A DNA stretch of 64,000 nt from a phage. The notes beneath the pieces were generated by a model. It was given only the letters and a program-made list of their open reading frames with translations, was not told the DNA's origin and searched no databases. Location: NCBI GenBank assembly GCA_031520405.1, contig GCA_031520405.1_4842.1, one strand, 5' to 3'. Made by a program: the position numbers and the translations under genes. Positions within the stretch are counted from its first letter, which is position 1; each line of letters starts with the position of its first letter. Below, in pieces: positions 10,049-55,245 of the stretch.

Positions 10049-10364
10049 TCCGGAGCCTCACCGAATTGATTAAATGTCTCCATTATTATATTGGAGATAC
10101 GTTTATTGAATATAAACACAGGAATGGCCAATAAAATAATGACAGTGATTATTAATAGGTAAAAACTACTTTTCTACAACATCAAGAAACTGTATCTTAA
10201 CGCGGTGCCCTTCGAGTTGTGAGTGTTAACGAACAACGAGAAGCAGCCACCATGGCTGCGGAATGGGACTGCCTGTCAAGGCGGTGTTACGAGCGAGGGC
10301 GTCAGCCCCCTCGCGAGTATATTCGAATAAATTAAACGCGCGCGAGCGTTTTGATTCCCGTTGG

Positions 10365-10372
10365 CTAAATAT
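10365..10372 (+). promoter_or_regulatory. T4-late-promoter-like box CTAAATAT upstream of the baseplate wedge gene
   Basis: matches the recurring CTAAATA(C/T) motif found upstream of many structural genes here; resembles T4 late consensus TATAAATA. Confidence 0.35.
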
Positions 10373-10411
10373 CTTCAACACCATATTCAAACTCAGGTGA
10401 TGGAGATTATC

Positions 10412-13033: not shown

Positions 13034-14224
13034 ATGGCCGATTTCCTGAGTCAATATACAGGTCAGCAGATAGATCAGATATTGGGTTCTGTTGACGACA
13101 AAGTAAGTAAAAATGACGTTATTAACGATTTTGAAGTTAACGACCCATTGTTTCCACCATCTGCTCGCCTGACATATGAGTTGAAAAGATCTGTTGACAC
13201 AATCAATGATACTCTGGCCAACAAAGTTATTCGTACAGATAGTGGTGAACAAACAATCAATGGCAAAAAGACTTTCAATGCGTTGTTGGTGACCAATGGG
13301 GGCATACAAGTTCCCGCCGGAAAATCCGTTTCAATCACAGATGAACCAACGAACTCGACAGATGGTGTTAACCTGAGCATGTTGAGAAAGCATGGCGTCA
13401 GTGAAGACACTACCCCGCCTGGTTCTGGTTTGGCTGGGGAGTTGTTGACATCCGGATATTACAAATTCAATTTGGACTTCACCAGGTTGTCTGCGTATAC
13501 CGGACCAACGTTGCCGACTTCAGTTCCAGTACAAACAGATTCTGGAGCGCGTTATTGGACAATGACTGCATTTTTTGATGCGTTGTTTGCAGACAACCGA
13601 TTTAATGGATATGTGACAACGACAGCGTATGACGCAGATATGCTGAGTCTAGAATCCCAGATTAATAACATCAACACGTCGTTGAACGGGAAAGTCAACA
13701 CCTCGACTTACAACACTAAGATGGCGTCATTGGATTTGAGTATCTCCAATATCAATACGTCTCTGGGTAATAAAGTCGAGGTCAGCACGTACAACACGAA
13801 GATGGCATCTCTGGATAACAGCATCAGTTCTCTTTCCAGTGATAAAGTTAGTGTATCAACGTATAATGCCAAGATGACCTCTATCGACAATAGTTTGGGG
13901 AACGCCGTTTATCGTACCAAAACGAATTTGTCGTCATACACGGTTTCGGCTTCTGGAACGACGGCTCTTCCAGATTTTGATTTGGTGAACCTTTGTCAAA
14001 TACTGGTAACTGCGCAATGGGGGATAGGTAACGTTGTTGACACATATCGAGTAACCATAACTCGTGACGGAACGATCAAATCAGAGTTGTTAGTTCAGAA
14101 AAGTACGAGTGGTACAGTGACGTTCACAGGGTCTGTGGTGGGCGGTAAATTGAGAATTTCCGTTGTTAATGCGAATACAACAACTGCTTGTTCTGTTGAT
14201 TATTCTATTGCAGCTTCTTTCTAA
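13034..14224 (+). CDS. fibre-like structural protein with tandem 22-aa repeats
   Basis: 396-aa ORF; AAGGAG RBS; three tandem NTSxxNKVxxSTYNTKMASLD repeats. Confidence 0.6.
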   Translation: MADFLSQYTGQQIDQILGSVDDKVSKNDVINDFEVNDPLFPPSARLTYELKRSVDTINDTLANKVIRTDSGEQTINGKKTFNALLVTNGGIQVPAGKSVSITDEPTNSTDGVNLSMLRKHGVSEDTTPPGSGLAGELLTSGYYKFNLDFTRLSAYTGPTLPTSVPVQTDSGARYWTMTAFFDALFADNRFNGYVTTTAYDADMLSLESQINNINTSLNGKVNTSTYNTKMASLDLSISNINTSLGNKVEVSTYNTKMASLDNSISSLSSDKVSVSTYNAKMTSIDNSLGNAVYRTKTNLSSYTVSASGTTALPDFDLVNLCQILVTAQWGIGNVVDTYRVTITRDGTIKSELLVQKSTSGTVTFTGSVVGGKLRISVVNANTTTACSVDYSIAASF

Positions 14225-14226
14225 AA

Positions 14227-14264
14227 CTAAATACCCCTAGATGACATGAATACATTTAGGGGTA
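14227..14264 (+). promoter_or_regulatory. CTAAATAC late-promoter-like box fused to a 5' hairpin (TACCCCTA/TAGGGGTA) ending 6 nt before the ATG
   Basis: read directly; same architecture recurs at 17375, 19433, 30909, 41158 and 47170. Confidence 0.4.
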
Positions 14265-14270
14265 TTACAA

Positions 14271-17200
14271 ATGGCCAACAAACCAACACAGCCTCTTTTC
14301 CCTTTGGGTTTAGAAACTTCTGAGTCTTCGAACATAAAAGGCTTCAACAACTCCGGCACTATTGAGCATTCCCCTGGTGCCGTAATGACATTTCCTGAAG
14401 ATACTGAAGTTACAGGTCTTCCATCTTCTGTGCGTTACAATCCTGATAGTGATGAATTTGAAGGTTATTACGAAAACGGTGGTTGGCTGTCTTTGGGGGG
14501 CGGTGGAATACGCTGGGAAACGCTCCCTCACGCTCCCTCTAGCAATTTGTTAGAAGGTCGTGGCTATCTCATTAATAATACCACAGGGACATCTACAGTG
14601 GTTCTCCCTTCCCCTACGCGTATTGGGGATTCCGTTACTATTTGTGATGCTTATGGGAAATTTGCCACTTACCCATTGACCGTGTCTCCTTCTGGAAATA
14701 ATTTGTATGGTTCCACTGAAGACATGGCTATAACAACTGATAATGTTTCAGCAACGTTCACTTGGTCTGGACCTGAACAAGGTTGGGTTATCACATCCGG
14801 AGTCGGTCTTGGTCAAGGCCGTGTCTACAGTCGTGAAATCTTTACACAAATTTTGGCGTCTGAAACAAGTGCTGTCACTCTCAATACTCCACCAATAATC
14901 GTGGACGTGTATGCTGACGGAAAACGTCTTGCGGAATCCAAATATTCACTAGATGGGAATGTAATCACTTTCAGTCCTTCTTTGTCAGCCAACACAGAAC
15001 TTCAGGTGATTGAATATACTCCTATTCAATTGGGTAATGGCGGTGGTTCTGGTTCTTCTACGATTACTTGGGTCTATAATGGGGGTTCAGCGATTGGCGG
15101 TGAAACCGAAATCACGTTAGACATCGTTGTTGATGATGTTCCGGCCATTGATATAAACGGAAGTCGCCAGTATAAAAATCTGGGGTTCACATTCGATCCA
15201 TTAACCAGTAAAATCACTCTTGCGCAAGAACTGGATGCAGAGGATGAAGTTGTTGTAATTATCAATGGAACGCCAAACATCTATAATCAAATTGATTATA
15301 CTTTGCGGGAAGTGGCTCGTGTAACCAATGTTAAAGATACAGAGGTCATTTATTTTAGTGTTGGTGCTGTGTTAAGCGGGTATAAAGTTATCTATGATAA
15401 AGTAACACAGAGATCATATTTTATTCCAGAGCTACCGACTGGAACCACGGCAGTCAGCCTTAGTTCTTCGGCTGTACTTGTGCATTCTGCTGGTAGTGTT
15501 GATCTGGGCGCATTAGCTGTATCTCGTGAAGAATACGTAACATTGTCTGGGACATTTGATTCTGGTGCTGTCATCAATACTAAAAATGAATTACTCACTC
15601 ACACGGATGGAAAGTATCGTTGGGATGGTACACTTCCTAAAACCGTTGCTCCTGGCTCAACTCCTATTACAACAGGCGGCGTTGGTGTTGGCGCATGGAT
15701 TAGTGTTGGTGATGCTTCATTGAGAAGTGACTTATTAAAAGATGATGGATACACACTTATTCCATCAGTGCAAATTCAGCAATGGAGAGCTGAGGGTGAC
15801 ATTAGAGGGTGGGGGGCTGTAGACGGTGGATTCAATGATTCAGCCATTTTAGCGGCTCTAAACTCTGATTCACCGAGTATAAAGCTCGGCGGAAGAGGAT
15901 TTGTTTCCAAGGTTTCCGATACCATTAACCACAAAAGCAATAAAGTGATACATAGTGGTTCCCTGAATTTTCAGTTTGTTGGAGGAACTCAGCAAGAGAA
16001 ATCCGGGATACTTATGGCTAACATCGCTAATGCCAAAGTGATTGATGTTGATATAACCGGAACCCTGGACGGCGGCATTCGTGGGTACGGTGGAAGCAAT
16101 ATCGTTATTGACGGAGTGAGTGTTCACGACATCGGGGTTTCAGCATTGACTGGCGAGTGCGGCATGGGGATCTGGTTCGGAGACTACGCACACTATGAGA
16201 ATCAAACTGATGGACTATTAATACAAAATTGCCGCATTAACAATATTGGCGGTGTAGGCATCATGCGCGGTGACGGCATTGGTGTTTATAATGCTAAAAA
16301 CTTTACTATCAGAAACAATAACATCACCACTGTAAACAGAATGGGGATATCAGCAGGTAGTGATTGTTTATATTTCAAAATACACGGGAACTATATTGGC
16401 GATATCTTATTGGCAGGTATAGATATAGAACCAGATGCACATTATACCGCTTCAAATTTCAAGATATACAATAACACTATTATTGGTTTTGCCTCTAGAT
16501 TCGTGACTGCGACTGGCGGTGTTGGTCAGCTTTTTGGTATTGATGTACACGCCAACACTTCATACGGTAAAGTTTACAAGAACATACTGTCGGCAGGTCA
16601 GTATGGAACAGAAGCATTCCATATAGGAAATAATGCAGATGAGATTGAGATTACAGATAACGATCTGATAGGCGGTGCTGTTGTAATCCCATTATTCATT
16701 AAGACATATGATGGTAGTGGTAGTAAGCACATCAAAATAAACCGCAACAGGGCAAAGAGAACATGTAAATCATTTGCAGATGTTGCCATGTCTGAAGATG
16801 TTTATATTTCTGAAAATGTATTCTCTGGAAATAGTTCTGCTGATAGCTTTTTCTTAAGGCTATCGACAATATCTGGGCTTAATGTTGACTATAACCGGTC
16901 CAGTGATACAACAAACTTCATTAAGGCATTTGACGCTGGAAACACATCAAGTATGAAGGTCACTAATAATAATGCATACACTCTTTCAGATGGTATAGAC
17001 ATACTAACTTCTGGTCCACTGGCTGAATTTATTGCTTCTGGAAACACTATTTTATGCCCAGCATCCAACAAAGGAATTTCACTGGAAGTAACAGGTTCAG
17101 GTTCTATTTCTAATATTAGGCTCCGTGGCAACATAATTTATAATGCCACAACTAAAATATATGTATCACCTGCTGCCACTGGATGGGATATGTTAACCAA

Positions 17201-17306
17201 AAATAGCAGGTATGATCTGTCTGGAGTCGCAAATGGCACTCAGCTATTCGAACTATCAAGGAATAGAGTTACTCAATTTTTAAACGGAACATGGTATGAT
17301 GGTTAA
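14271..17306 (+). CDS. tailspike protein 1 (1011 aa) with N-terminal anchor modules and beta-helix-like repeats
   Basis: shares a conserved block (VxYFSVG..SGYKVIYD..YRWDG..GAWxSVGDxSLRxDL) with the two tailspikes at 17415 and 22293; NxxITTVNRMGISAG-type parallel beta-helix repeats. Confidence 0.75.
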   Translation: MANKPTQPLFPLGLETSESSNIKGFNNSGTIEHSPGAVMTFPEDTEVTGLPSSVRYNPDSDEFEGYYENGGWLSLGGGGIRWETLPHAPSSNLLEGRGYLINNTTGTSTVVLPSPTRIGDSVTICDAYGKFATYPLTVSPSGNNLYGSTEDMAITTDNVSATFTWSGPEQGWVITSGVGLGQGRVYSREIFTQILASETSAVTLNTPPIIVDVYADGKRLAESKYSLDGNVITFSPSLSANTELQVIEYTPIQLGNGGGSGSSTITWVYNGGSAIGGETEITLDIVVDDVPAIDINGSRQYKNLGFTFDPLTSKITLAQELDAEDEVVVIINGTPNIYNQIDYTLREVARVTNVKDTEVIYFSVGAVLSGYKVIYDKVTQRSYFIPELPTGTTAVSLSSSAVLVHSAGSVDLGALAVSREEYVTLSGTFDSGAVINTKNELLTHTDGKYRWDGTLPKTVAPGSTPITTGGVGVGAWISVGDASLRSDLLKDDGYTLIPSVQIQQWRAEGDIRGWGAVDGGFNDSAILAALNSDSPSIKLGGRGFVSKVSDTINHKSNKVIHSGSLNFQFVGGTQQEKSGILMANIANAKVIDVDITGTLDGGIRGYGGSNIVIDGVSVHDIGVSALTGECGMGIWFGDYAHYENQTDGLLIQNCRINNIGGVGIMRGDGIGVYNAKNFTIRNNNITTVNRMGISAGSDCLYFKIHGNYIGDILLAGIDIEPDAHYTASNFKIYNNTIIGFASRFVTATGGVGQLFGIDVHANTSYGKVYKNILSAGQYGTEAFHIGNNADEIEITDNDLIGGAVVIPLFIKTYDGSGSKHIKINRNRAKRTCKSFADVAMSEDVYISENVFSGNSSADSFFLRLSTISGLNVDYNRSSDTTNFIKAFDAGNTSSMKVTNNNAYTLSDGIDILTSGPLAEFIASGNTILCPASNKGISLEVTGSGSISNIRLRGNIIYNATTKIYVSPAATGWDMLTKNSRYDLSGVANGTQLFELSRNRVTQFLNGTWYDG

Positions 17307-17317
17307 GTTATTTAAAA

Positions 17318-17341
17318 ACCCCGCTTCGGCGGGGTTCTTAT
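17318..17341 (+). terminator. intrinsic terminator (UUCG tetraloop)
   Basis: ACCCCGC-TTCG-GCGGGGT followed by TCTTATTAT. Confidence 0.65.
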
Positions 17342-17382
17342 TATACCTTTGTTCATAAATTTTATTAGTTCAGACTAAATAC
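17325..17382. repeat. direct repeat copy 1 (about 58 bp, identical to 19383-19440)
   Basis: identical string spanning terminator 3' half through the CTAAATAC box. Confidence 0.9.
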
Positions 17383-17409
17383 TCCATATTGGTCATCCTT
17401 TATGGAGTA
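17375..17409 (+). promoter_or_regulatory. CTAAATAC box plus 5' hairpin TACTCCATA/TATGGAGTA upstream of tailspike 2
   Basis: 9-bp stem, 12-nt loop; 3' arm contains the GGAG RBS; ATG at 17415. Confidence 0.4.
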
Positions 17410-17414
17410 TTATC

Positions 17415-19328
17415 ATGATTTCTCAATTCAATCAACCACGCGGCTCCACTTCCATAGAAGTTAACAAACAATCTATCGCTCGAAATTTCGGTGTCAAAGA
17501 AGACGAAGTCATTTATTTCACTGTCGGTATTGATCTCAGCGGATTTAAAGTAATTTATGATGAGTCTACCCAACGGGCTTATTCTCTTCCTTCGGGTATT
17601 GTTTCAGGAACGATTGCGATAAGTCTGAACGAACAAGCCATCCTTACTCATTCTTCTGGCTCTGTTGACCTTGGGGAATTAGCAGTAAGCCGCGAAGAAT
17701 ATGTGACTTTACCTGGTTCTTTTAATTTCGGTCATACCATTAATGTGAAAAATGAACTTCTTGTTCACGATGATAAAAAATATCGATGGGATGGTTCTTT
17801 GCCAAAGGTAGTTGCCGCTGGTTCTACACCCGATAACTCAGGCGGTGTTGGTTTAGGTGCATGGTTGAGTGTTGGTGATGTATCATTGAGAGCGGATTTG
17901 GCTAGTGGCACACTTGGTAAAGGTGCGAATCTTTTGACATATAAGTCACAAGTATCAAACTCGGTTGCTATAAGCCAACAAATTAAAAATAGTGAAAGGG
18001 TTTCTGTTTTTGAGTATTTGGCTAAGCCTATTCCTGGTTTTGATAATGCATCAGCATTCGCTGCTATGAAAGCTGATGCTGAAGCAGGTGTTGTAATAAC
18101 AGTACCTTCAGGAGTATATGAAACATCTGAACCACTGAGATTCACAAAACCTGTTCAAATATGGTTTGATGTAGGAGTGCGAATAAAACTTACATCTGGT
18201 GCACATGACCATGTTGTGGAAATAGATTTACGTGGACAAGATGAGGGGTATTGGGGGTATAAACCTTTCTTTGGTGGTGGCAGGGTTATTCTTGATGGTC
18301 TTGGTCATGCTAAGTACGGGCTATCACTTCGTGGCGTAATATCTGGTGGTTTTCCTGGTATTCAAGCAACCAATATAACAACTGCTGGGTTATATCTGGC
18401 TTGGACTCAATGCTGTACATACACTGATTTTATTTGCTCTAATAACGTGGAGGTTTTCACAACAAAACCCCTGCACGGTATTTTAGTAGATAAAGATAAC
18501 AATCCGTCAAATCCACGTGGTACATCATGCGATATCTTTATTAACCCATGTGTAGAGCACACTGCGGGTGATGGGTTTGTAGGACTAAGCCTGATGAACT
18601 CAATGGTTATAAACGGAACAATCGAGGGAAACCTTGGCGCAGGCATTTCATTGGGGCATCCTACAGATAATACTTACACTGCACTGGGTAATACATTTCT
18701 TGGTATTGACCTTGAGGTGAACACGCTAACTGATATTGTGATTAACAAGTTTTCACACATGAACGAGTTCATAGGACTCAAATCAGGTTATTCATCTCCA
18801 TCAGTTCAGGTCAGAGGTTTTCGTAACTATTTCTCTGGAGGTACTGTTAGCGATTTCGACTTCAGGCCAGATAGCCATGACAACCACGTACAGGATGTAA
18901 CACTTTTAGCTGAGTTTCCTGTTGTTAATGATGAAGGGATAAGAAACACTTATGAAAGATTATGGAATCTTAACAATGCTCAAGTTAACGTAAGCACAAA
19001 CCCTGTTAACACAAGAAGCAATCAGCCTATAGCGGGAGGTGAGACAGTAACGTTAGACCCATATAAAGCATCCTATGTTGTATGCACCGCAACAGGAACA
19101 CCTATTAATATAGTTTCTGCCACCAAAAAATTAGATGGAGCAAGAATAGATTTGACAATTCACAATGCATCAGGAACAGATTCATTAGTCATTAACTGGG
19201 CATCAGATATTAGAGTTGGCAATTTTACTCCTCCACCAGCAGGTAAACATAAGGGGTTATCACTAAGATATGATGCTAATTACGGTTATTGGACTGTAGT
19301 TGGTGTTGGACTGGACGCTTTATCGTGA
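17415..19328 (+). CDS. tailspike protein 2 (637 aa)
   Basis: N-terminal anchor block shared with the tailspikes at 14271 and 22293; Gly/Asn-rich beta-helix-like C-terminal region. Confidence 0.75.
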   Translation: MISQFNQPRGSTSIEVNKQSIARNFGVKEDEVIYFTVGIDLSGFKVIYDESTQRAYSLPSGIVSGTIAISLNEQAILTHSSGSVDLGELAVSREEYVTLPGSFNFGHTINVKNELLVHDDKKYRWDGSLPKVVAAGSTPDNSGGVGLGAWLSVGDVSLRADLASGTLGKGANLLTYKSQVSNSVAISQQIKNSERVSVFEYLAKPIPGFDNASAFAAMKADAEAGVVITVPSGVYETSEPLRFTKPVQIWFDVGVRIKLTSGAHDHVVEIDLRGQDEGYWGYKPFFGGGRVILDGLGHAKYGLSLRGVISGGFPGIQATNITTAGLYLAWTQCCTYTDFICSNNVEVFTTKPLHGILVDKDNNPSNPRGTSCDIFINPCVEHTAGDGFVGLSLMNSMVINGTIEGNLGAGISLGHPTDNTYTALGNTFLGIDLEVNTLTDIVINKFSHMNEFIGLKSGYSSPSVQVRGFRNYFSGGTVSDFDFRPDSHDNHVQDVTLLAEFPVVNDEGIRNTYERLWNLNNAQVNVSTNPVNTRSNQPIAGGETVTLDPYKASYVVCTATGTPINIVSATKKLDGARIDLTIHNASGTDSLVINWASDIRVGNFTPPPAGKHKGLSLRYDANYGYWTVVGVGLDALS

Positions 19329-19373
19329 CATCACCAACATTATAAAATGATGTTGTTGCTGTTAAAATTTAAA

Positions 19374-19400
19374 TAACCCCTCTTCGGCGGGGTTCTTATT
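19374..19400 (+). terminator. intrinsic terminator (UUCG tetraloop, one stem mismatch)
   Basis: ACCCCTC-TTCG-GCGGGGT followed by TCTTATT. Confidence 0.55.
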
Positions 19401-19440
19401 ATACCTTTGTTCATAAATTTTATTAGTTCAGACTAAATAC
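19383..19440. repeat. direct repeat copy 2 (identical to 17325-17382)
   Basis: identical string. Confidence 0.9.
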
Positions 19441-19468
19441 CCCATATTGGCAAATCCTTTATGGGGTA
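19433..19468 (+). promoter_or_regulatory. CTAAATAC box plus 5' hairpin TACCCCATA/TATGGGGTA upstream of tailspike 3
   Basis: differs from the 17380 copy by a compensatory T-to-C / A-to-G pair that preserves the stem. Confidence 0.45.
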
Positions 19469-19475
19469 TTTTCAA

Positions 19476-22241
19476 ATGACCAGAAATGTAGAAGAATTAT
19501 TCGGCGGCGTAATCACAGCTCCTCACCAGATTCCTTTCACGTATAAATCAAATGTCGGTGGAGAAACTTTCCTTTCTTTGCCGTTCCATCCCGTCACTGG
19601 TGTTATCACAATCAACGGTGGTATGCAAGTTCCGTTAGACAACTTTGAAATCGAAGGAAATACGTTGAATCTCGGGCGCGCATTGTCCAAAGGCGATGTT
19701 GTGTATTGCTTATTCGATAAAATTCTTTCGCCAGAAGATACAGCCAAAGGTATCCGCATATACAAATTTCAGGCCGTGGGAGGTGAAACCGAGTTCACTC
19801 CTGATTTCACATCCTATGGTGTCCAATCTCTTTATATCGGTGGCGAGTACAAAACACCCGAAATTGAATATTCCTATAACAGCACGACAGGGAAAGTGTC
19901 TTTGCAAACTGCACTGACTGCAGGCGTTTGGGTAGTCGCTGAAATGTCTGTTAAACAACCGAATATCAGTCCGGCGTTTGACCGAAGTATTCAAGAAATC
20001 GCCCGTTCTGCTAATGTAAAAGACTCTGAAGTCATCGTTAGTACGGACACCATATCTTTGTTGGATGGGAAGAAAGTTGTTTATGATATAGCGACGCAAA
20101 CCAGTTATGGTTTACCAACCATTCCTGATGGTTCTGTCATTTCTTCTGTATCTGCTGGGAAATTGAATTACAACCCAGGTGATGTGCAGGTTGATTTGTT
20201 GCCTTTAGAAGATTCATTTATTAATGTGATAAACACTCTGGGGCGCAATGATGGTGCCAAGTATATTGGAGAATGCCATTCTGTTGCTGATCTCAGGAAT
20301 ACTGAACCCACTATGGATGGACAACGCATTATTCTTAAGCAACACACTGCGGGTACTCTTCTTGGTGGAGGGGTATTCCGTGCGTTAATTGATGGTACAG
20401 GAAAGACTGATAATAACGGTACTGTGATCAAAACTGTTGGCGGCGCGGCATGGTTACGTGTTAATGCTGATAGAGTTAACCCATTCATGTTTGGTGCTTT
20501 GGGTGGTTCTAATGATGATACTATTCCAGTACAATCTTGTGTGGATAGTGGTAAGGCCACACAATTAACTGATGCACATTACGTTAGCAATATCCAGTTA
20601 AAATATAATACGTCGTCTATTTATGGGTCTGGATTACATTACTCAAGGTTGCATCAGTTGCCTTCTGCTACTGGGAATTGTATTACCATAAAAGATACAT
20701 GCTCCCTTATTGTATTAGACGCCTTTGGGGTATATGGCACAGGTGCACAACAAGGCATGCCATTTACTGCGGGCACAACAGGTATCTATGTAGAAACTCC
20801 TTCAGGTCTCTCAGCCGATTATCCGTTCCACACTACCGCAGACCCAAGACGCGACTTGTGTATTTCTAAGGTCCATATAGCAGGTTTTGATGAATATGGG
20901 TTAAATATTGATAGTGGTAACTTTAGTGTTACTACAGATTCTCTTTTAGTCAACCACATCAATCAGGTGGGTGTCCGTTGTGCTACTACTGATTGGACTT
21001 GGACAAATATCCAGGTTAATACCTGCGGTAAACAATGTCTGGTTCTTGATGGTTGTGGTAATGGTCGTATTATTGGCGGTAAATTCATTTGGGCTAACTG
21101 GCAACCTTATGGTACAGTAGGACAGTTCCCAGGCATTACTATTAATAACAGCCAGAATATGGTTATTAATGGTATTGAGGTACAAGATTGTGGCGGGAAT
21201 GGCATTGAGATTAGCGATTCATATTCAATTTCCATGAACGGATTGAACACCAATCGTAACGGCATCAATGCTAACAACACTTTCTACAACATCGTATTTA
21301 ACAAAAGCGATGCAGTTATCAACGGATTCGTAGGACTCAATTATGCCGCGAATAGTGGTTCAGGTGCTAACTCTAGTGCAGGCAATTTTCAGTTCCTGTC
21401 TAATGATTGTAGTGTCACCATTAATGGTGTGGTTGAGACTGGTTATATGGGCATTAACTTTATTGGTGATAACAATATTATCAACCCCACCAATTCCGAC
21501 CTGAGCATTAACGGATTGGTTAATTATTCCAAGACTGGTTTGCAAACCATGAACGAGACCCCTACATTTGATGGTGTTAGCACTACACCTGTTTATGTAA
21601 GTGTCCCATCTTCTGTAGGGCAAGTAAATGGTCTGAGACTATCACAAGCCAACAAAGATAAATTACTGTATTCAAGAACAGCAGGTCCAGAAGGTATTAC
21701 CATGGCTGCTGTTGTAGTACCCACCATATCTGGAGCTGAAGTATTTAACTTCATGGCCATTGGTTCAGGGTTTAGTGATACATCCAACAGTCTTCATCTT
21801 CAATTAGTTATAGACGCTTCTGGAAAACAAACAATTGCTTTGCTATTGGGGGGCGATGGTACAACCCAAATTTTATCTGGGGATTTACCTAACGACCTTA
21901 AACTACAAAGTGGTGTACCATATCATATAGCTATTGGTGCTAAACCTGGATATTTCTGGTGGAGTATTCTTAATATTCAGACGGGTAAGAGAATCAGACG
22001 GTCATTCCGAGGCGCTTATTTAGCCGTACCATTTAATTCTATATTCGGATTAACTTCTTCATTAACATTCTTCTCGGATAGCAATGCTGGTGGGGATGCT
22101 TGTTCTGGGGTTGGTGCTAAAGTGTATGTTGGTATGTTCTCTTCTGAGAACGATTATGTAGCTTCACGATACTACAACCTGATTAATCCTGTAGACCCTA
22201 CTAAGTTAATTAGTTACCGTATATTGGATTCTTCTATTTAA
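19476..22241 (+). CDS. tailspike protein 3 (about 921 aa)
   Basis: start placed at ATG 19476, 7 nt after the hairpin as in the paralogs; carries a more divergent anchor block (NVKDSEVIV...KVVYDIATQTSYGLP) and a beta-helix-like region. Confidence 0.7.
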   Translation: MTRNVEELFGGVITAPHQIPFTYKSNVGGETFLSLPFHPVTGVITINGGMQVPLDNFEIEGNTLNLGRALSKGDVVYCLFDKILSPEDTAKGIRIYKFQAVGGETEFTPDFTSYGVQSLYIGGEYKTPEIEYSYNSTTGKVSLQTALTAGVWVVAEMSVKQPNISPAFDRSIQEIARSANVKDSEVIVSTDTISLLDGKKVVYDIATQTSYGLPTIPDGSVISSVSAGKLNYNPGDVQVDLLPLEDSFINVINTLGRNDGAKYIGECHSVADLRNTEPTMDGQRIILKQHTAGTLLGGGVFRALIDGTGKTDNNGTVIKTVGGAAWLRVNADRVNPFMFGALGGSNDDTIPVQSCVDSGKATQLTDAHYVSNIQLKYNTSSIYGSGLHYSRLHQLPSATGNCITIKDTCSLIVLDAFGVYGTGAQQGMPFTAGTTGIYVETPSGLSADYPFHTTADPRRDLCISKVHIAGFDEYGLNIDSGNFSVTTDSLLVNHINQVGVRCATTDWTWTNIQVNTCGKQCLVLDGCGNGRIIGGKFIWANWQPYGTVGQFPGITINNSQNMVINGIEVQDCGGNGIEISDSYSISMNGLNTNRNGINANNTFYNIVFNKSDAVINGFVGLNYAANSGSGANSSAGNFQFLSNDCSVTINGVVETGYMGINFIGDNNIINPTNSDLSINGLVNYSKTGLQTMNETPTFDGVSTTPVYVSVPSSVGQVNGLRLSQANKDKLLYSRTAGPEGITMAAVVVPTISGAEVFNFMAIGSGFSDTSNSLHLQLVIDASGKQTIALLLGGDGTTQILSGDLPNDLKLQSGVPYHIAIGAKPGYFWWSILNIQTGKRIRRSFRGAYLAVPFNSIFGLTSSLTFFSDSNAGGDACSGVGAKVYVGMFSSENDYVASRYYNLINPVDPTKLISYRILDSSI

Positions 22242-22245
22242 AAAT

Positions 22246-22272
22246 ATACCCCTCTTCGGAGGGGTCTTTACT
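22246..22272 (+). terminator. intrinsic terminator (UUCG tetraloop)
   Basis: ACCCCTC-TTCG-GAGGGGT followed by CTTTACT. Confidence 0.6.
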
Positions 22273-22292
22273 AGAAAAACAATGAGGTACTT

Positions 22293-24338
22293 ATGAACGA
22301 AATGTTTAGTCAAGGTGGTAAAGGTTCGACTGGAATCTTAACCAATAAACAAGCAGTAGCCAGACACTTTGGTGTTAAACAATCTGAGGTTGTTTATGCC
22401 AAATCAGGACAGTCCTTGTCTGGTTATAAAGTGATCTACGATAAGGTATCTCAACGTGCCTACGCTCTCCCTTCTAACATTGGTACTGTAACGGTCACTA
22501 GTTTAGTCGACGGCATTCTCACGCACTCTGGAGGCACCGTAGATTTGGGTGCATTGGCTGTGTTAAGGGAAGAGTATGTTACTCTTGTTGAAAATTTTAC
22601 TTCTGGATTTACGATTCGTGTCAAGAACGAAGTCGTGAGCGATGGGGTGAGTCTATATCGTTGGGATGGTGCTTTACCTAAAACCGTTGCACCTGGCTCA
22701 ACACCTGAAACAACTGGTGGCGTTGGTTTAGGTGCATGGTTGAGTGTTGGTGATGCCACATTAAGAAGTGAATTAACATTGAATGTTTCAGATATTAATG
22801 GATTGATTAACGTTAATACAAGAAACAAAAATTTCATGTATGTTACATCATCGTTTCGAGGGGGTGGAGGTGCTGGTGTATATGTATGGAATCCCACAAA
22901 AAATAAATCATTACATAACGGAGCGACTATCATAGACCCATCAAGGACTCTACCGATAAACTGGGATTCTCAGTCGCAAATAGATGATTGGTTTACAATT
23001 TCATCCACAGATGGGGTGGGATGTTTTGAATTAATTGAGGGGGAGAGCTCGGTTAATCCATTGCAGTGGGGCTGCTTGGGCGATTCATCAAAAGACAACC
23101 CACATAGTGGGTATGATAACTCTTTAATATCTGATTATGTTGATGACTACGCTGAATCAGTAAATAAAACAGTATTTTGGCCTCACGGTATATTTAGATT
23201 CACTGGTCCACAGCAAAGAAAGACAAGGCATGATGGACATGAATACATTAGAATGAATAGTGAGTTTTCTACTGTTTTTATTATTGACAATCAGACGCCA
23301 ATAACTTTTCTAAAAGGAAAAGGGATTGGGACCGACCATCAGAAACTGTATGCCCACGGTTCAAGAGGAATAGAATATATTGGCAACCCTAAACGAATCC
23401 ATACTCTTCTTGATGCATACATGTACACGACATCATGGAAGCATTTTGCTGTTCGTGGATTTAAATATGGATTTGATATAAATTTTGTCTCTTTCCATAT
23501 TCAGAATTTCTATTTTACTGATAATGAAATTGGAATTTACCCAAAACCACTAATGCCGCCATTGCAAGCTGCCGCACCAAGTACAATGCTATCATTATCT
23601 TACGGTGCATTTGATTTCAGTAAGAATGGAATAGTATTCACTGAGAGATTTGGGCTTGGCGAGGCAGAAAACGTCATAAACGTAAATCTATCTTCTGTTG
23701 TGTTCGAACAAAATGAATTTGACGGATTCAGTTGTGCTAACTATCCATTACCTGTCGGTGTGAAAAACGCCAACAACAGGGTTATGAACCTTACAGTAAA
23801 TAATTGCTGGGCTGAACTTAACGGTAGAGCTGGTTTCAACTTCGAGAACGCTGACGTAACTGCGAATTCATTGAGAATAAATGAAGCGGATGAATTGATT
23901 TATCCAGCAGGGGCAAGGACATACTCTATTGATGTAAATGGTGTAAGGGAAACAAACGTACTAAAATCGTCACTTTATGGAGCGCATAATATAGAAGCTC
24001 CGGTATCTGGTCAAATGATAATAAAACCAGATGGTAGCATTTATTCTGGTGCGACAATGCCTTTTACTGTTACAAAGACATCGGAAGGTCAATTTAAATT
24101 AACGAATGCATCATCTACTCAGGGGTTTCAATACGTATCAATAGAGGTTATGCCATTCGATAGAGCAAGGATTGATACTGTTGTGACATGTGACCCATCA
24201 GATGTCGCAGCGTTCGTTCAGTTTGGTACAATATCAAGCTATAAGATTGAATTTACATCGAGAGGCACATCTACATTTGTAACTCCAGAGGCTGGTTTCG
24301 CAGTTAAATTCTCATGGGTTCACCCTCTTAATAATTAA
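22293..24338 (+). CDS. tailspike protein 4 (681 aa)
   Basis: N-terminal anchor block nearly identical to tailspike 1 (LYRWDGALPKTVAPGSTPETTGGVGLGAWLSVGD). Confidence 0.75.
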   Translation: MNEMFSQGGKGSTGILTNKQAVARHFGVKQSEVVYAKSGQSLSGYKVIYDKVSQRAYALPSNIGTVTVTSLVDGILTHSGGTVDLGALAVLREEYVTLVENFTSGFTIRVKNEVVSDGVSLYRWDGALPKTVAPGSTPETTGGVGLGAWLSVGDATLRSELTLNVSDINGLINVNTRNKNFMYVTSSFRGGGGAGVYVWNPTKNKSLHNGATIIDPSRTLPINWDSQSQIDDWFTISSTDGVGCFELIEGESSVNPLQWGCLGDSSKDNPHSGYDNSLISDYVDDYAESVNKTVFWPHGIFRFTGPQQRKTRHDGHEYIRMNSEFSTVFIIDNQTPITFLKGKGIGTDHQKLYAHGSRGIEYIGNPKRIHTLLDAYMYTTSWKHFAVRGFKYGFDINFVSFHIQNFYFTDNEIGIYPKPLMPPLQAAAPSTMLSLSYGAFDFSKNGIVFTERFGLGEAENVINVNLSSVVFEQNEFDGFSCANYPLPVGVKNANNRVMNLTVNNCWAELNGRAGFNFENADVTANSLRINEADELIYPAGARTYSIDVNGVRETNVLKSSLYGAHNIEAPVSGQMIIKPDGSIYSGATMPFTVTKTSEGQFKLTNASSTQGFQYVSIEVMPFDRARIDTVVTCDPSDVAAFVQFGTISSYKIEFTSRGTSTFVTPEAGFAVKFSWVHPLNN

Positions 24339-24432: not shown

Positions 24433-27400
24433 ATGCAATCTACAAATTTAAACCGTCGCCCGTATTGGGATGACTGGAATCCTGGGAAACGTTTTTCACG
24501 GATTCTTTTTCGTCCGATGCCTATCAAGGTTCAGACTCGCGAACTGAACCAGATGCAGACTATTCTTCAGGATCAAATTGAAAAACTGGGCAACCATTTG
24601 TTCAAAGATGGTTCTATGGTTATCCCTGGCGGTCTGACGATCACTAACGCCGCAGTCTCTTTGAAATTCACTTTGGCGGGTGGTACTGAATTCACTGATC
24701 TGGAAGGTATTTCTGAACTCTACGTTTTGGGGAAAGACAATAACGCCAAAGCGCGTGTGCTGTCTCTTGAACGTGATCTGTCTGCTCCTGATACAATGCT
24801 GGCTATCCTTGAGATGACTGAAGCGGGTAATGCTGACGGATTCCATGTTAACGATAATCTGTATTTCCAGACTTACGACGTGAATGATAATTTCATTCGT
24901 ATTGGTTATGGTATCGCAGCTGCAGTGACTGGTTCTATCGTCGCTCGTATGACGAAAGGCGTTTACTTCATTCGTGGGATGTTCCTAGACGTTGATGACG
25001 CAACTCTTATCGTTGACAAAACTTCTAACATCACTTCCCACCGCATCGGATTTAAAGTCACCGAAACCATTGTCACTGAAACAGAAGATGAATCCCTTTA
25101 TTCAAATGCTCAGGGAACGATTAACTCCAAAGCCCCAGGCGCTCATCGTCTTCGAATAGATCTGGTCTTATCTCGATTTGATTATGATGCTGTGGTTGAA
25201 GACTTTGTTGAACTGGCCAAAGTTCGTGATGGTAAAATCCAGTCTATGGTGACTCAGTCCACCTATAATATTCTGGAAGACACGTTGGCCCAACGGACGT
25301 ATGAAACCAACGGCGATTACAACGTTTCGACCCATCAGATCGATATCCGTGAACACCTGAAAGTCAATAACAATGGCGGGGTATTCGGTGCTGCTGATGG
25401 CGGTGACGAAAGTAAATTCGTGTCTGTAATGAAACCAGGTATTTCCTATGTTCGTGGTCGCCGTATCGAAAACGTCGGGGAAGAGTTGGTGATCGTTGAT
25501 AAGGCGCGGGATACCGATGTCCTGAATAACACCCCTGTTGCGGTGGCCACAGGCAATTATCTGGTCACCAAGAATTCTAAAGGTGTGCCAGTGATATCCC
25601 GCACCGTTCGATACAAATTACTGAATGCTTCAGGCGTTACCCAGGCTACAGCACTTTGTATATCAGCTGAACGTAATTCAACAGAATTTCGTCTGTATAT
25701 GCGCGACCTGGTCGTTACTGGCGATGCATCCACTATCACCAAAGTGTCTTACGAAGAAAGCGGTATCACCATGTTCTCTGCTGAACTGGAATCCAATCAG
25801 TTTAACCAGAGTTCTATGATAGATCTGATCTTCTCTCTTCCGGTATTCGGTGTCAAGACTTTAGCACCAACTGGCTCCGTGGATATCAACTACACTGTTC
25901 TCAGAACGTATAAAGTGACGCTAGACAGCAGTGGTTCTGGTTCTATTTCAGCCCCGCTGGGATATAGTTTTTCCCCAGAATTTTCGTTATACTCTGCAGC
26001 GAAATCTGATGGTTCTGAAGCGCAGTTCGATATCTCTGGTTCTTTGTCTTTGACTGGTTCTCCGGTCGGTTCGGCGCTGCAGATTTCTCTGGGCAGTGGT
26101 AATGCTAACCAGTCAATCAATTTGCTGGCGCTGATGATTCGTACCACGGCCACAATCAAAACGAAGACCATCACTGAAACAACTGAAACAGTGACGTTCA
26201 CCTCGCAGACTAGCCGCCCTTTGGCGAATCACGATGGTTGGAAATTGGTGTCGGTCAAAAACGATACTGGCGCAGACGTGACCTCCAGCTTCGTCCTAGA
26301 TGGCGGACAGCGTGATGCAGGGTATTACAAGTCTAACTTGTTATCCAGCGCTGGAGCAATCTCAGGGACGTATACAGTGGTGTATCAATACTTCGCCCAC
26401 AGTTCCGGTGATTTCTTCTCTGCTGATTCGTATACTTCGATGGATTATAAAGATATCCCGAATTATACATCTTCTACATCAGGCGCGGTGTACGGCCTGG
26501 CAGATAGTTTGGATTTCCGTCCGAAAATCACCAACGGAACTTCTGACACAGATATGGTTCGTCCAAACACTGCAGTTATTCTGGACACAGAATATTATCT
26601 GCCGCGTATTGACGCGATTTATCTGGCAGACAACGGTGTGTTTGGTGTGGCTCGAGGCATTAGTTCTAATAATCTGGCTTCTCCAGCAATCCCAGCGAAC
26701 GCCATGCGTTTGTATGAATTGTTGATCCCGCCGTATACACCGAATATTGATGATATCCAAATTCGAACTATTGATAATCGTCGTTATACGATGCGCGATA
26801 TCGGTAAACTGGAAACCCGTATTTCCAATGTTGAATACTATACCTCTCTGTCACAGCTGGAATCTTCAGCGATGACACAGCAAGTGTTTGACCCCATTAC
26901 GGGTAATCCTCGTTTCAAAAATGGTATTGCAGCTGATCCGTTCAAAGACTTCCGGTTGATTGATGACTTGTCTGAAGATTGGATGGGTTCTATCGATACC
27001 GAAAACGGACGTCTGCGCCCGTTTGTACAACAAAACGTTGTTGACATGACTCCGGTTGGCTGGAACAAAGTGATGGATGGGATGGTGGTTTGTAATTACA
27101 CGCCTGAAATCTCGGTGAACCAAGAATATGCGACGACGACGATCAACGTTAACCCGTATGCAGTATTCAATTGGGAAGGTTTCTTGAAGATTAACCCGAC
27201 CACAGACTACTGGTTCGAAAACTATTATGTTTCACCGCGTATTATCAATGAAACGATCAACACCCGTGGTACTGTACAAGAAGGTTCAGTGTATGGAACA
27301 TGGCGTACTGTTTCTGTTTCTGATCGTGTTTGGGAACCGCATGGTGCTGGTGGTGTGTGGTGGGGATATCGTTACCGCACGACTGTTTCTGCCCGTGATG

Positions 27401-30908: not shown

Positions 30909-30933
30909 CTAAATACCTTCAAAATTGAGGGTA
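30909..30933 (+). promoter_or_regulatory. CTAAATAC box plus 5' hairpin (TACCTTC-AAAATT-GAGGGTA)
   Basis: same loop AAAATT as the copy at 47175-47194. Confidence 0.35.
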
Positions 30934-41157: not shown

Positions 41158-41181
41158 CTAAATACTGAAAAATCGTTCAGA
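41158..41181 (+). promoter_or_regulatory. CTAAATAC box plus short 5' hairpin (CTGAA-AAATCG-TTCAG)
   Basis: read directly upstream of the scaffold gene. Confidence 0.3.
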
Positions 41182-42032: not shown

Positions 42033-42123
42033 TTTTAGCAGCCACAGCCCTCGAAAGGGGGCTTGATTTTGAACTACTAAGTAATTTCAACTTAACTGAA
42101 TATCAATGTAAGGAACGAGCATC

Positions 42124-43446
42124 ATGACTAAGAAACTTGTAACCGAAGAAATGCGCAAACAGTGGCTGCCAGTTCTCCAAAAAGAATCTGAAGCTATTCA
42201 ACCTCTGTCTGCCGAAAACGTAACCATCCGTCTGATGCAGAACCAGGCTGAATGGAACGCAAAAAACCTGGGCGAATCTGACGCACCTGGTTCTGTGAAC
42301 AGCACTGTCGGTAAATGGCAGCCAGTTCTGATCGACATGGCAAAACGTCTGGCGCCGATCAACATCGCGATGGACTTCTTCGGTGTTCAGCCGCTGTCTG
42401 GTCCTGACGGTCAGATCTTTGCACTGCGCGCTCGCCAGGGTGTTGGTGACAGTTCCAACACCGCACAGTCTCGTAAAGAACTGTTCATGCAGGAAGCCGA
42501 TTCCGGCTATTCCGGTGATGGTACTGTACAGGCTGGCGACCCGTCAGGCTTTAGTCAGGCTGAGATCGAAGGTTCCGGCTCTGTCGTGACCACTATCGGT
42601 AAAGGTATGCCGTCAACCGACGCGGAACTGCTGGGTACTACCACCAATCCGTGGGCGCGTGTTGGTATCACCGTTCAGAAAGCGACCGTTACTGCCAAGT
42701 CTCGCGGCCTGTACGCTGATTACAGCCATGAACTGCGTCAGGACATGATGGCAATTCACGGCGAAGACGTGGACAATATCCTGTCTGACGTGATGGTAAC
42801 TGAAATTCAGGCGGAAATGAACCGTGAATTCATCCGTACCATGAACTTCAGTGCTGTTCGCTTCAAAAAATTCGGCACCAACGGTGTTGTTGATATCGCG
42901 CAGGACATCTCCGGTCGTTGGGCGCTGGAAAAATGGAAGTTCCTAACTTTCATGCTGGAAGTTGAAGCGAACGGTATCGGTGTTGACACCCGTCGTGGTA
43001 AAGGCAACCGTGTTCTGTGTTCTCCGAACGTGGCATCCGCTCTGGCGATGTCTGGCATGCTGGACTATGCTCCGGTTCTACAGGAAAACACTAAACTGGC
43101 TGTTGACCCGACTGGCCAGACCTTCGCTGGTGTTCTGTCCAACGGTATGCGCGTCTATGTTGACCCGTATGCTGTAGCAGAATATATCACTCTGGCATAC
43201 AAAGGCGCAACTGCGCTGGATGCCGGTATCTTCTTCGCGCCGTATGTGCCGCTGGAAATGTACCGCACCCAGGGTGAAACCACCTTCGCTCCGCGTATGG
43301 CGTTCAAAACCCGTTACGGCATCTGTGCTAACCCGTTCGTACAGATTCCGGCTAACCAAGACCCGCAGGTTTACGTGACTGCTGACGGTATTGCTCAAGA
43401 CAGCAACCCGTATTTCCGCAAAGGTCTGATCAAATCTCTGTTCTAA
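42124..43446 (+). CDS. gp23: major capsid protein, T4 gp23-like
   Basis: 440 aa; blocks FFGVQPLSGPDGQIFALRA and FKTRYGICANPF match remembered gp23 ICGVQPMNSPTGQVFALRA and FKTRYGIGINPF. Confidence 0.85.
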   Translation: MTKKLVTEEMRKQWLPVLQKESEAIQPLSAENVTIRLMQNQAEWNAKNLGESDAPGSVNSTVGKWQPVLIDMAKRLAPINIAMDFFGVQPLSGPDGQIFALRARQGVGDSSNTAQSRKELFMQEADSGYSGDGTVQAGDPSGFSQAEIEGSGSVVTTIGKGMPSTDAELLGTTTNPWARVGITVQKATVTAKSRGLYADYSHELRQDMMAIHGEDVDNILSDVMVTEIQAEMNREFIRTMNFSAVRFKKFGTNGVVDIAQDISGRWALEKWKFLTFMLEVEANGIGVDTRRGKGNRVLCSPNVASALAMSGMLDYAPVLQENTKLAVDPTGQTFAGVLSNGMRVYVDPYAVAEYITLAYKGATALDAGIFFAPYVPLEMYRTQGETTFAPRMAFKTRYGICANPFVQIPANQDPQVYVTADGIAQDSNPYFRKGLIKSLF

Positions 43447-43777: not shown

Positions 43778-43864
43778 TTGTTTATCGTAACGATTTAATA
43801 CGCGAATAGTTCAATAACAATTCCTGTTGTACGATATAACTTTCTTACAACAGGAGTATCAGTC

Positions 43865-44179
43865 ATGACAACCCGAAATATTACCTCTGAACAATCCGTG
43901 TCACAAATCCTCATTAATTCCCGCACCCAAAAAGAACGTCTTTTTGACATCCTCACTAATGTGATCAATATTCGTCGACAATTAGATGGTGAATTTCCCG
44001 AATCTGATTCTGAAGAAAAATCAACACACAATCCAGGTCTTGTTGGTGCTATCCTTAACATACAAGGAGAGCAGGACGATATCATCGATAGAATCAATGC
44101 TCACATGGACGTCATCCATACTAAACTGGGAACGTTTTATCACCCAAATTGTGAAGACGAGTCTAAAGATAATTGTTAA
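43865..44179 (+). CDS. hypothetical protein
   Basis: 104-aa ORF with AGGAG RBS. Confidence 0.5.
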   Translation: MTTRNITSEQSVSQILINSRTQKERLFDILTNVINIRRQLDGEFPESDSEEKSTHNPGLVGAILNIQGEQDDIIDRINAHMDVIHTKLGTFYHPNCEDESKDNC

Positions 44180-47169: not shown

Positions 47170-47194
47170 TTAAATACCCCCAAAATTGGGGGTA
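47170..47194 (+). promoter_or_regulatory. TTAAATAC box plus 5' hairpin (TACCCCC-AAAATT-GGGGGTA) followed by TTTTT and the ATG
   Basis: read directly; also terminator-like. Confidence 0.35.
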
Positions 47195-47199
47195 TTTTT

Positions 47200-49604: not shown

Positions 49605-50350
49605 TGGTTTCTCTACAGGCTTTGCGCAAACTTAATGACTTTGAAAATCGTCATCATACATTTCAGCAATATTCCTTGCCGTTTAAGGAACTGACTTGCG
49701 TAACTACCGAAAATGGTCGTCACTATGTTTCTCCCACTGGAGTCAAACTGACTTCAGTGACGACCATGTTAGGGCGTACTGGTGACCACACATGGTTAGA
49801 AGCCTGGCGGGACAAGTTGGGGCATGAAGCTGCTGATATAGAAACGCATCGTTGCGCAGACCGTGGGGAAAAACTTCATTTGGCTTGTGAGTTGTATCTC
49901 AAAAACAGACCAATGAAAGAAGTTCTGGAAGCTGCAGGGGAATACGTGTTTATGTTCAAACAGGTTTTCCCCTACCTTAACAAAATGAGCAAGATATATG
50001 CACAAGAGATTCCATTATATAGCGAAGTCCTGGGTCTTGCTGGTCGTGTTGACCTCATCGGGGTTTACGAAGGAATTCCAAGCATAATCGATTTCAAAAC
50101 ATCCAACACCCTAAAAACTCGAAGCATGATAGAAGATTATAGTATTCAATTGTGTCTATACTCAGTCATGTTTCAACAAATGTTTAATGTCAAGATAGAG
50201 CGTTTAATCAATATTATATCCAACGAAAATGCCCTTGTTCCCACCATAATCGAATTCGATCGCAAAGACGTTATTTCTAAAATGTTTGACCGTGTCCGTC
50301 TGTATCACAAAATGGACAAAGAACAGAAAGGAATCTGGGCGGATCGCTAA
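49604..50350 (+). CDS. putative PD-(D/E)xK family nuclease
   Basis: TAATG stop-start overlap; motif GRVDLIGV...IIDFKTS fits the D...(D/E)xK pattern. Confidence 0.45.
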   Translation: MVSLQALRKLNDFENRHHTFQQYSLPFKELTCVTTENGRHYVSPTGVKLTSVTTMLGRTGDHTWLEAWRDKLGHEAADIETHRCADRGEKLHLACELYLKNRPMKEVLEAAGEYVFMFKQVFPYLNKMSKIYAQEIPLYSEVLGLAGRVDLIGVYEGIPSIIDFKTSNTLKTRSMIEDYSIQLCLYSVMFQQMFNVKIERLINIISNENALVPTIIEFDRKDVISKMFDRVRLYHKMDKEQKGIWADR

Positions 50351-50354
50351 ATAC
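50347..50354 (+). promoter_or_regulatory. CTAAATAC late-promoter-like box
   Basis: followed by CTCCATAATATTGG, similar to the tailspike upstream copies. Confidence 0.3.
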
Positions 50355-50376
50355 TCCATAATATTGGGGGAAATTA

Positions 50377-54849: not shown

Positions 54850-55245
54850 ATGGTTGAAGTCCAATTGAACCAAGACAAACCAGGGATTTTCCTGGGTATC
54901 AAGGAAACGCTGAGTCGGATAGGGGTTAACACTCGTCAAGAGCCTAACACCTTGTATCAAACGTGCCATATCCTGCATAAATTTGGCAGATATCACATCG
55001 TGCATTTCAAGCATTTGTTCATGCTAGATGGGCACTACAACGGCTTTACGCGTGAAGATGTCCTGCGTATGAATCGGATTATACGGCTTCTGGAGCAATG
55101 GAATATGGTTAAGATCTTGCATCCGGAACAAATAACCGAAGTGGCTGACATGTCTCGGATCAAAGTTGTAAAACATGACCAAGTTTCTGAGTGGAAATTG
55201 GTTCCAAAATACACTATTCGCCCAAGTCGGGCAAAAAGCGAATAA
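54850..55245 (+). CDS. regA: translational repressor RegA
   Basis: LYQTCHILHKFGRYHIVHFKH and EWKLVPKYTI match remembered T4 RegA LYQSCHILQKKGLYYIVHFKE and EWKLVPKYTI; start placed at internal ATG 54850. Confidence 0.8.
   Translation: MVEVQLNQDKPGIFLGIKETLSRIGVNTRQEPNTLYQTCHILHKFGRYHIVHFKHLFMLDGHYNGFTREDVLRMNRIIRLLEQWNMVKILHPEQITEVADMSRIKVVKHDQVSEWKLVPKYTIRPSRAKSE

Follow-up and report, generated by a model that had tools for sequence, protein, structure and literature searches.

We analysed a repeated leader element that precedes tailspike genes in a 64,000-nt stretch of phage DNA (GenBank assembly GCA_031520405.1, contig GCA_031520405.1_4842.1; hereafter the window). The element joins a late-promoter-like box, CTAAATAC, to a hairpin that covers the ribosome-binding site. 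Comparison of positions 14000-20000 with known phages assigned the window to Kuttervirus in the Ackermannviridae (the ViI/CBA120 group), with Escherichia phage vB_EcoM_JN03 as the top match (99.3% identity over 72% of the query). Boxes stand before three tailspike genes (ATG at 14271, 17415, and 19476), the first of which follows a baseplate/tail gene (13034-14224) whose stop codon lies 3 nt before the box at 14227. The other genes preceded by a box encode the neck protein gp14 (30939), a scaffold protein (41193), a structural protein (47200), a UvsW-type helicase (50380), the baseplate protein gp6 (10412), and two minus-strand products of unassigned function.

The three tailspike sites, all on the plus strand, share one anatomy. 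At the first, the box (14227-14234) leads into a hairpin of 14 pairs at 14230-14266 (5' arm 14230-14243, loop 14244-14252, 3' arm 14253-14266), with core arms TACCCCTA (14232-14239) and TAGGGGTA (14257-14264). Its Shine-Dalgarno sequence GGGGT (14259-14263) lies inside the 3' arm, and the fold reaches -19.1 kcal/mol (z -5.3 against dinucleotide shuffles, the reference for all three tailspike hairpins). At the second, the box (17375-17382) is followed by a hairpin of 11 pairs and a 2-pair inner helix at 17378-17411 (5' arm 17378-17388, 3' arm 17401-17411; core arms TACTCCATA at 17380-17388 and TATGGAGTA at 17401-17409; -17.5 kcal/mol, z -4.6). This is a CTCC/GGAG variant in which T17383 pairs with A17406. 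The third site has its box at 19433-19440 and a hairpin of 12 + 2 pairs at 19435-19471 (5' arm 19435-19446, 3' arm 19460-19471; core arms TACCCCATA at 19438-19446 and TATGGGGTA at 19460-19468; -18.9 kcal/mol, z -4.3), again with GGGGT (19463-19467) inside the 3' arm. The original prediction for this DNA had given the coordinates of the three sites correctly and had seen that the 3' arm carries the ribosome-binding site. It had also located the arms properly, but the stems are longer than it supposed, with 11-14 pairs whose upstream end lies within the AATA of the box.

The second and third sites stand about 40 nt behind intrinsic terminators of the preceding tailspike genes, a canonical one at 17317-17336 (+) and another at 19375-19394 (+). 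Terminator, spacer, box, hairpin, and ribosome-binding site together make up a cassette of about 100 nt that is duplicated in the window (17306-17420 and 19364-19481 on the plus strand, 93% column identity), a layout that fits tailspike genes moving as self-contained expression modules. Among GenBank phages, the CTCC/GGAG leader of the second tailspike (17366-17420) has a 100% match only in Salmonella phage heyday, and the region flanking it is otherwise nearest to Escherichia phage JN03; by these matches the tailspike locus looks mosaic.

A genome-wide search for the motif had been proposed as a check; over the 64 kb of the window we found seven exact copies of CTAAATAC against 1.69 expected, a number reached in none of 100 shuffles. 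Every copy precedes a gene, with the start codon 25-45 nt downstream. The consensus (a/g/c)CTAAATA is present at all gated sites, largely before structural genes. Upstream of the fourth tailspike gene (ATG 22293), the interval 22242-22295 contains a terminator (22248-22265) and no TAAATA box before the ATG, and the major capsid gene (ATG 42124) has a box with one mismatch, CTAAGTAA, within 42033-42126. A census of exact TAAATA boxes is thus a lower bound.

CTAAATAcCcc is one of two regulatory motifs listed as typical of the Ackermannviridae ('Viunalikevirus') (PMC7283392). The window box has the same sequence as this motif and the same kind of position. Its first description is reportedly, and probably, that of Adriaenssens et al. 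in Arch Virol in 2012, and no paper in the literature that we searched ties it to a hairpin or a ribosome-binding site. The T4 late promoter is the 8-bp TATAAATA spanning -13 to -6, and the late-promoter variant of Aeromonas phage Aeh1 has a C at -12. The window box fits the T4 late box, specifically in its Aeh1-type form with C at -12.

As late as 2011, ViI-like phages were said to have no identified late promoter, and homologues of gp55, gp33, and gp45 were recognised; such homologues are reported in CBA120, ViI, and AG3. In the PHROGs database, a protein of Klebsiella phage Magnus matches phrog_234, 'late sigma transcription factor' (E=4e-54), and has orthologues that are 75% identical in the complete Kuttervirus genome Se-B and 60% identical in Serratia phage KNP4; the gene lies outside the window. 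As tblastn queries, T4 gp55 and gp33 gave no match at E=1e-3 (within the window, neither these two proteins nor T4 RegB matched anything), and Pfam was likewise empty. The published family motif, the likeness to T4 and Aeh1, the position before structural genes, and the gp55-type sigma in the family together indicate that the box is very probably a late promoter, as the original prediction had proposed.

For tests against chance we combined the window with eight loci that represent five further genera. These divergent genera were taken from GenBank phages, a search with a single protein having returned only near-identical Kutterviruses. A hairpin pairing the 4 nt after TAAATA was found at 36 of 70 gene-upstream boxes and at 18 of 97 boxes elsewhere (Fisher p=1e-5), a conservative figure, since our crude gene caller missed some true starts and several real sites were counted as elsewhere. 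The Shine-Dalgarno sequence is more paired in genes with a box than in other genes (0.68 vs 0.49, p=2e-9). Across 18 orthologous gene groups, arms fold better with their own partners than with swapped ones (-7.8 vs -4.5 kcal/mol, permutation p=5e-5), so that the match is site-specific and not merely a C-rich stretch meeting a G-rich one.

Hairpins are kept at orthologous genes in Taipeivirus, Agtrevirus, Limestonevirus, Nezavisimistyvirus, and Miltonvirus, and that of the first tailspike (14230-14266) is conserved in all five genera. The arms are gene-specific yet complementary and in register, beginning at the end of the box and finishing 4-8 nt before the ATG (e.g., CCCCTAG/CTAGGGG, CCCCATA/TATGGGG, GATCT/AGGTC, TCTTCA/TGGAGA, CCTTCGC/GCGGAGG, and CCCATAAC/GTTATGGG).

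The difference between the second and third tailspike sites had been read as compensatory, T/C at 17383 versus 19441 being matched by A/G at 17406 versus 19464, and it is a true compensatory pair. Over the 46 nt from box to ATG, the 17375 site and its Se-B orthologue differ only at these two paired positions. In 38 hairpin copies from IMG/VR and the loci that we fetched, the variable pair is C/G in 37, T/A in one, and mixed in none. With the 55-nt leader as query, the only GenBank phage matching at 100% is heyday and the next matches, at 96.4%, carry both changes; no single-change intermediate was found among the best 25 of 201 matching GenBank records. MAFFT and RNAalifold analysis of orthologues gave one compensatory pair at a tailspike hairpin and one at the gp6 hairpin, the latter in phiEa2809 and KNP4 and accompanied by two further one-sided changes, and none at the first tailspike site. 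Formal covariation counts in these alignments are small, and indels misalign some of the 3' arms. Selection is better supported by the swap test, by the variety of arms from gene to gene, and by the absent single-change intermediates. To judge from these comparisons, the pairing of the arms is under selection.

Alternatively, the arms could be complementary only as a by-product, if the late polymerase prefers C-rich sequence after the box and this happens to complement any G-rich ribosome-binding site. The C fraction in the 4 nt after the box is 0.62 at hairpin sites and 0.22 at non-hairpin sites in Se-B, 0.64 and 0.24 in KNP4, and 0.56 and 0.11 in T4; the non-hairpin values of 0.22-0.24 are close to the genome background. 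Boxes without a hairpin are therefore not C-rich, and the 'cCcc' of the published motif would be the anti-Shine-Dalgarno arm of the gated subset rather than a general promoter element. The pairing also runs beyond the Shine-Dalgarno sequence into TA/TA, CATA/TATG, and TAG/CTA, and neither the swap result nor a double substitution whose single-change intermediates were not found among the records examined is expected of a by-product. In its favour, the orthologues of the gene at 2030(-) in Agtrevirus, Limestonevirus, and Taipeivirus retain CCCCAT after the box but have no 3' arm to pair with it, an exception that argues for some inertia. We consider the by-product explanation very improbable.

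The inverted repeat might instead act as DNA, as an operator overlapping the late promoter or as a cruciform. The repeat does overlap the promoter, and autorepression of I-TevI at its own late promoter is a precedent. However, the arms vary by gene (CCCCTAG, CCCCATA, GATCT, TCTTCA, CCTTCA), so no single protein could read them all. G-T is tolerated in the stems but A-C is not, and the sense strand folds more stably than the antisense strand, through G-U pairs (p=0.006), which favours a structure in RNA of the coding strand. A role as DNA is accordingly given hardly any weight.

Measured against the box, the 5' arm of the hairpin opens as much as 4 nt before the box ends and closes 5-11 nt beyond it (three sites scored +14/+15 because the arm runs into inner helices, and two of these are one locus in two genomes). 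With a T4-type box at -13 to -6, transcription is expected to begin about 6-7 nt past the box. A is enriched 5-7 nt past the box, reaching 63% at the seventh base, and the predicted late starts are 14239-14240, 17387/17388, and 19445/19446 for the three tailspike genes. The C-rich half of the arm would thus be promoter DNA, absent from the late mRNA.

RNAs begun at these predicted starts reach only -2.4 to -4.5 kcal/mol (z +0.2 to +0.7), no better than shuffles. On read-through RNA the Shine-Dalgarno sequences of the three sites have unpaired probabilities of 0.02, 0.00, and 0.10. From read-through RNA to RNA starting 6 nt past the box, this probability rises from 0.24 to 0.55 in the window and from 0.19 to 0.54 in Se-B, and the rise is significant over the 23 gated sites of Se-B and KNP4 (Wilcoxon p=7e-7).

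The original prediction had put the hairpin at the 5' end of the late mRNA. If late transcripts did start at or before the TAC of the box, the hairpin would be a 5'-terminal structure that protects the mRNA from decay or a ribosome-binding site opened by a factor or by temperature. The hairpins are indeed stable, conserved, and close to the ATG, and no start-site data directly contradict such a position. Leader hairpins able to pair with the Shine-Dalgarno sequence are likewise found in ompA-type stabilisers and RNA thermometers, but those lie in translated mRNA, whereas the 5' arm in the window is promoter DNA and is expected outside the late transcript. The stem takes in 2-4 nt of the box and the next 5 nt, and no promoter transcribes its own -10-type element; provided that the box is the promoter, the late transcript would not hold the whole hairpin. 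In T4 gene e, which has the identical design, late 5' ends were mapped inside the structure. A closed site (unpaired probability 0.00-0.10) on the sole mRNA of abundant virion proteins would also be odd. We regard a 5'-terminal structure as improbable. Of the two roles first proposed for the fold, translational gating appears to be of the right kind, and protection of the 5' end found no support.

The closest parallel is T4 gene e, for which McPheeters et al. reportedly described in 1986 a translation-initiation-region hairpin with embedded late promoters. Its late promoter sits in the DNA encoding the 5' strand of the hairpin; long early transcripts fold into it and yield about 100-fold less lysozyme, whereas the 5' strand is missing from late transcripts, which are translated (PMC3014915). 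The same gating is known for T4 49, soc, I-TevI/II/III, and segB and for Aeh1 mobE (PMC3014915, PMC2988022).

The layout of gene e is TATAAATACCTTC-TATAAATACTTA-GGAGGTATT-ATG. Its stem (-14.9 kcal/mol, z -5.5) begins in the AATA of the first box and continues directly with CCTTC, and its 3' arm consists of the Shine-Dalgarno sequence and TATT. In both phages the late box leads directly into an anti-Shine-Dalgarno pyrimidine run, the stem starts from the AATA of the box, and the 3' arm lies on the Shine-Dalgarno sequence and ends a few nt before the ATG; an upstream stop codon a few nt before the box is another feature that gene e shares with window sites. The neck-gene site at 30910 has the same TAAATACCTTC as gene e, with the same CCTTC anti-Shine-Dalgarno sequence, and the tailspike sites carry TAAATACCCC or TAAATACTCC in its place. 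The two systems differ in the box (TATAAATA in T4, CTAAATA in the window), in the second late box that gene e carries in its loop, and in the tailspike stems, which exceed that of gene e in length and stability (-17 to -19 vs -15 kcal/mol). They differ too in setting, gene e being a lysis gene after early genes and the tailspike genes following late genes and terminators. The gene e mechanism has been tested experimentally, whereas that of the window is deduced from sequence.

As a positive control we ran one blind rule over the whole T4 genome, and it returned only 49, e, segB, and I-TevI (4 of 44 gene-upstream boxes). The 49, segB, and I-TevI gates have the same logic and geometry as the window sites. 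The rule called 14 of 29 boxes in Se-B (Fisher p=2e-4 vs T4), one call being a terminator-like false positive that is also present in the window at 29269, and 9 of 30 in KNP4 (p=0.03 vs T4). T4 gates few genes, namely nuclease, mobile-element, and accessory genes, whereas the Se-B gates include tailspike, baseplate, and neck genes.

We therefore favour, with a probability of roughly two in three, a translational gate of the T4 gene e type built into the late promoter. The (a/g/c)CTAAATA box would be the -13 to -6 element read by the gp55-type late sigma of the phage, and its last bases with the following pyrimidine run (CCCC, CTCC, CCTTC, or TCTTC) would form an anti-Shine-Dalgarno sequence. 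On RNA entering from upstream, this run would pair with the ribosome-binding site 20-30 nt further on and block binding of the 30S subunit. Transcription from the own promoter would begin about 6-7 nt past the box, at the conserved A, and the resulting late mRNA would lack the anti-Shine-Dalgarno arm, leaving its ribosome-binding site open for translation. Translation of gated genes would then depend on the firing of their own late promoter and not on read-through past an upstream gene or terminator. Such read-through is likely at the boxes at 14227, 2510(-), and 47170, which lie a few nt from the ends of same-strand genes, and at 50347, which overlaps a stop codon.

The hairpins share with rho-independent terminators the form of GC-rich intergenic stem-loops, some with a U-rich tail, and they might terminate or attenuate upstream RNA with the late promoter nested inside, insulating transcription and not translation. 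A U-rich run does follow some copies (GGGGGTATTTTTATG at 47171, GGGGTATTTTCAAATG at 19434), and early-type promoters in these phages do lie within terminator-like hairpins. In addition, the counterpart of the 47171 hairpin in Klebsiella phage Magnus, an orthologue, is entered in GenBank as a 'terminator', in overlap with an annotated ribosome-binding site. Against this, a simple terminator rule calls none of the box hairpins, genuine terminators stand about 40 nt upstream of two of them, and most copies have no U-run (e.g., the tails TATTACAAATG at 14228 and TATCTATG at 2509(-)). Unlike terminators, the tailspike sites have loops of 9-13 nt and a 3' arm that is the ribosome-binding site; the 3' arm always lies on the Shine-Dalgarno sequence, 4-8 nt from the ATG, and terminators need neither. 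We think a terminator role unlikely, though it is the alternative that we weight most. The Magnus feature (record MN045230, 64062-64089) is probably a mis-annotated gating hairpin, and flags the risk that such hairpins are entered as terminators.

Several points weigh against the gating reading. The literature that we searched held no mapped transcription start or transcriptome for any Ackermannviridae phage, and our placing of the start follows T4, whose gp55 shares only about 20% identity. The T4 late box is followed by an AT-rich segment, and a C-rich segment in that place might move the start. Covariation among orthologues is sparse, the core arms being nearly invariant. At 14227, 2510(-), 47170, and 50347, terminating ribosomes could open the stem, which would give coupling in place of a block. 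Terminators stand before the boxes at 17375, 19433, and 10365, the genes upstream of the tailspike sites are themselves late, and the read-through expected at several gated genes comes from late and not early genes. A purely temporal early/late role is hence not evident at the tailspike sites, where the gate may uncouple translation from read-through (insulation, stoichiometry) rather than delay it.

By our analysis this is probably a further case of a well-known mechanism, that of T4, apparently much commoner here than in T4 itself and extended to host-range genes. It would account for half of a published and unexplained family motif, the 'cCcc' being the anti-Shine-Dalgarno arm, and it gives predictions of late start sites for the Ackermannviridae. 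The gene e trick would be used on a large scale, tailspike genes included. There are practical consequences as well: an engineered Kuttervirus tailspike with a foreign promoter and the native leader including the box may be transcribed and not translated, and edits of tailspike leaders in the 5' arm or the ribosome-binding site would need paired changes.

A wider proposal is that the promoter-embedded anti-Shine-Dalgarno arm is a genome-wide grammar of the Ackermannviridae that serves insulation more than timing, together with tailspike dosage and cassette portability. We offer this tentatively and hold it to be the less likely case. Were it true, a third to nearly half of late promoters would limit translation of their cistron to own-promoter RNA, and early-type promoters would likewise be nested in terminator loops. 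Insulation would let the four tailspikes and other virion parts be set independently of read-through and would make the cassette of terminator, promoter, gate, ribosome-binding site, and tailspike gene portable between phages.

Elsewhere in the window, equally good sites lie beyond those listed in the original prediction, at 2510(-), 5346(-), 10365, and 50347. On the minus strand, the box CTAAATAC at 2510-2503 begins 7 nt past the stop codon of the upstream gene and continues into the hairpin TACCCCATAC/GTGTGGGGTA (2480-2510, -18.0 kcal/mol) before the gene 2477-2028. Also on the minus strand, a TAAATA box with the hairpin TAGATCT/AGGTCTA, which covers AGGAGG, stands before the gene 5314-5081 (5315-5346, -8.6 kcal/mol). 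The baseplate gp6 gene (ATG 10412) has the box CTAAATAT and the hairpin ATCTTCA.CACC/GGTG.TGGAGAT (10365-10407 (+)), and a terminator-like stem precedes this box too. Before the UvsW-type helicase gene, the box CTAAATAC, which overlaps the stop codon of an upstream exonuclease gene, is joined to CTCCA/TGGGG (50347-50369 (+)). The apparent site at 29269, the false positive noted above, is a terminator-like stem unrelated to a ribosome-binding site and was rejected.

Three further plus-strand sites had been listed from the start. The neck gp14 gene (ATG 30939) has the box CTAAATAC and the hairpin TACCTTCA/TGAGGGTA (30909-30933, -9.2 kcal/mol). The structural gene at 47200 was said to follow the same box motif, but its box is TTAAATAC and not CTAAATAC; it comes directly after the stop codon of a block of small genes, with the hairpin ATACCCCCAA/TTGGGGGTAT (47170-47197, -16.6 kcal/mol). 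The scaffold gene (ATG 41193) had been counted among the hairpin genes and does have the box CTAAATAC, but its hairpin is weak (five pairs, CTGAA/TTCAG, 41158-41180, -3.5 kcal/mol) and leaves the ribosome-binding site uncovered.

The divergent intergenic region before the gp6 box contains a GC-rich, highly structured stretch of 167 nt (10196-10362 (+); minimum free energy -64.9 kcal/mol, z -3.5) that ends in the terminator-like stem AAACGCGCGCGAGCGTTTTGATT. It has no Rfam match and may be a small RNA gene. An Rfam scan of the whole window brought only three tRNAs to the gathering score, encoded on the minus strand at 5701-5786, 6457-6529, and 6946-7018, and no family matched the box hairpins. 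A homologue of RegA, the T4 translational repressor, is encoded at 54850-55218 (+) and is 45% identical to T4 RegA.

The other published motif of the family is an early-type promoter, TTCAAT-N13-15-TATAAT, often found inside a GC-rich terminator-like hairpin with the -10 hexamer in the loop and a T-run after the 3' arm (e.g., TTCACTaaacaacagaggcTATAATggcctctgttttttg). We found nested copies in the window at 56144-56204 (+) and 4548-4479 (-) and in Se-B at 26554, 36465, 66616(-), and 69601(-). Their full folds reach -17 to -29 kcal/mol, against 0 to -5 kcal/mol from the predicted start, and these promoters appear to be nested in the terminator of the preceding unit. At about 43800-43867 (+), before the gene at 43865, the spacer CCTGTTGTA of an early-type promoter pairs with the ribosome-binding site TACAACAGGAG; this leader combines a promoter arm with a ribosome-binding-site arm, as at the late boxes, but the promoter is not a late one.

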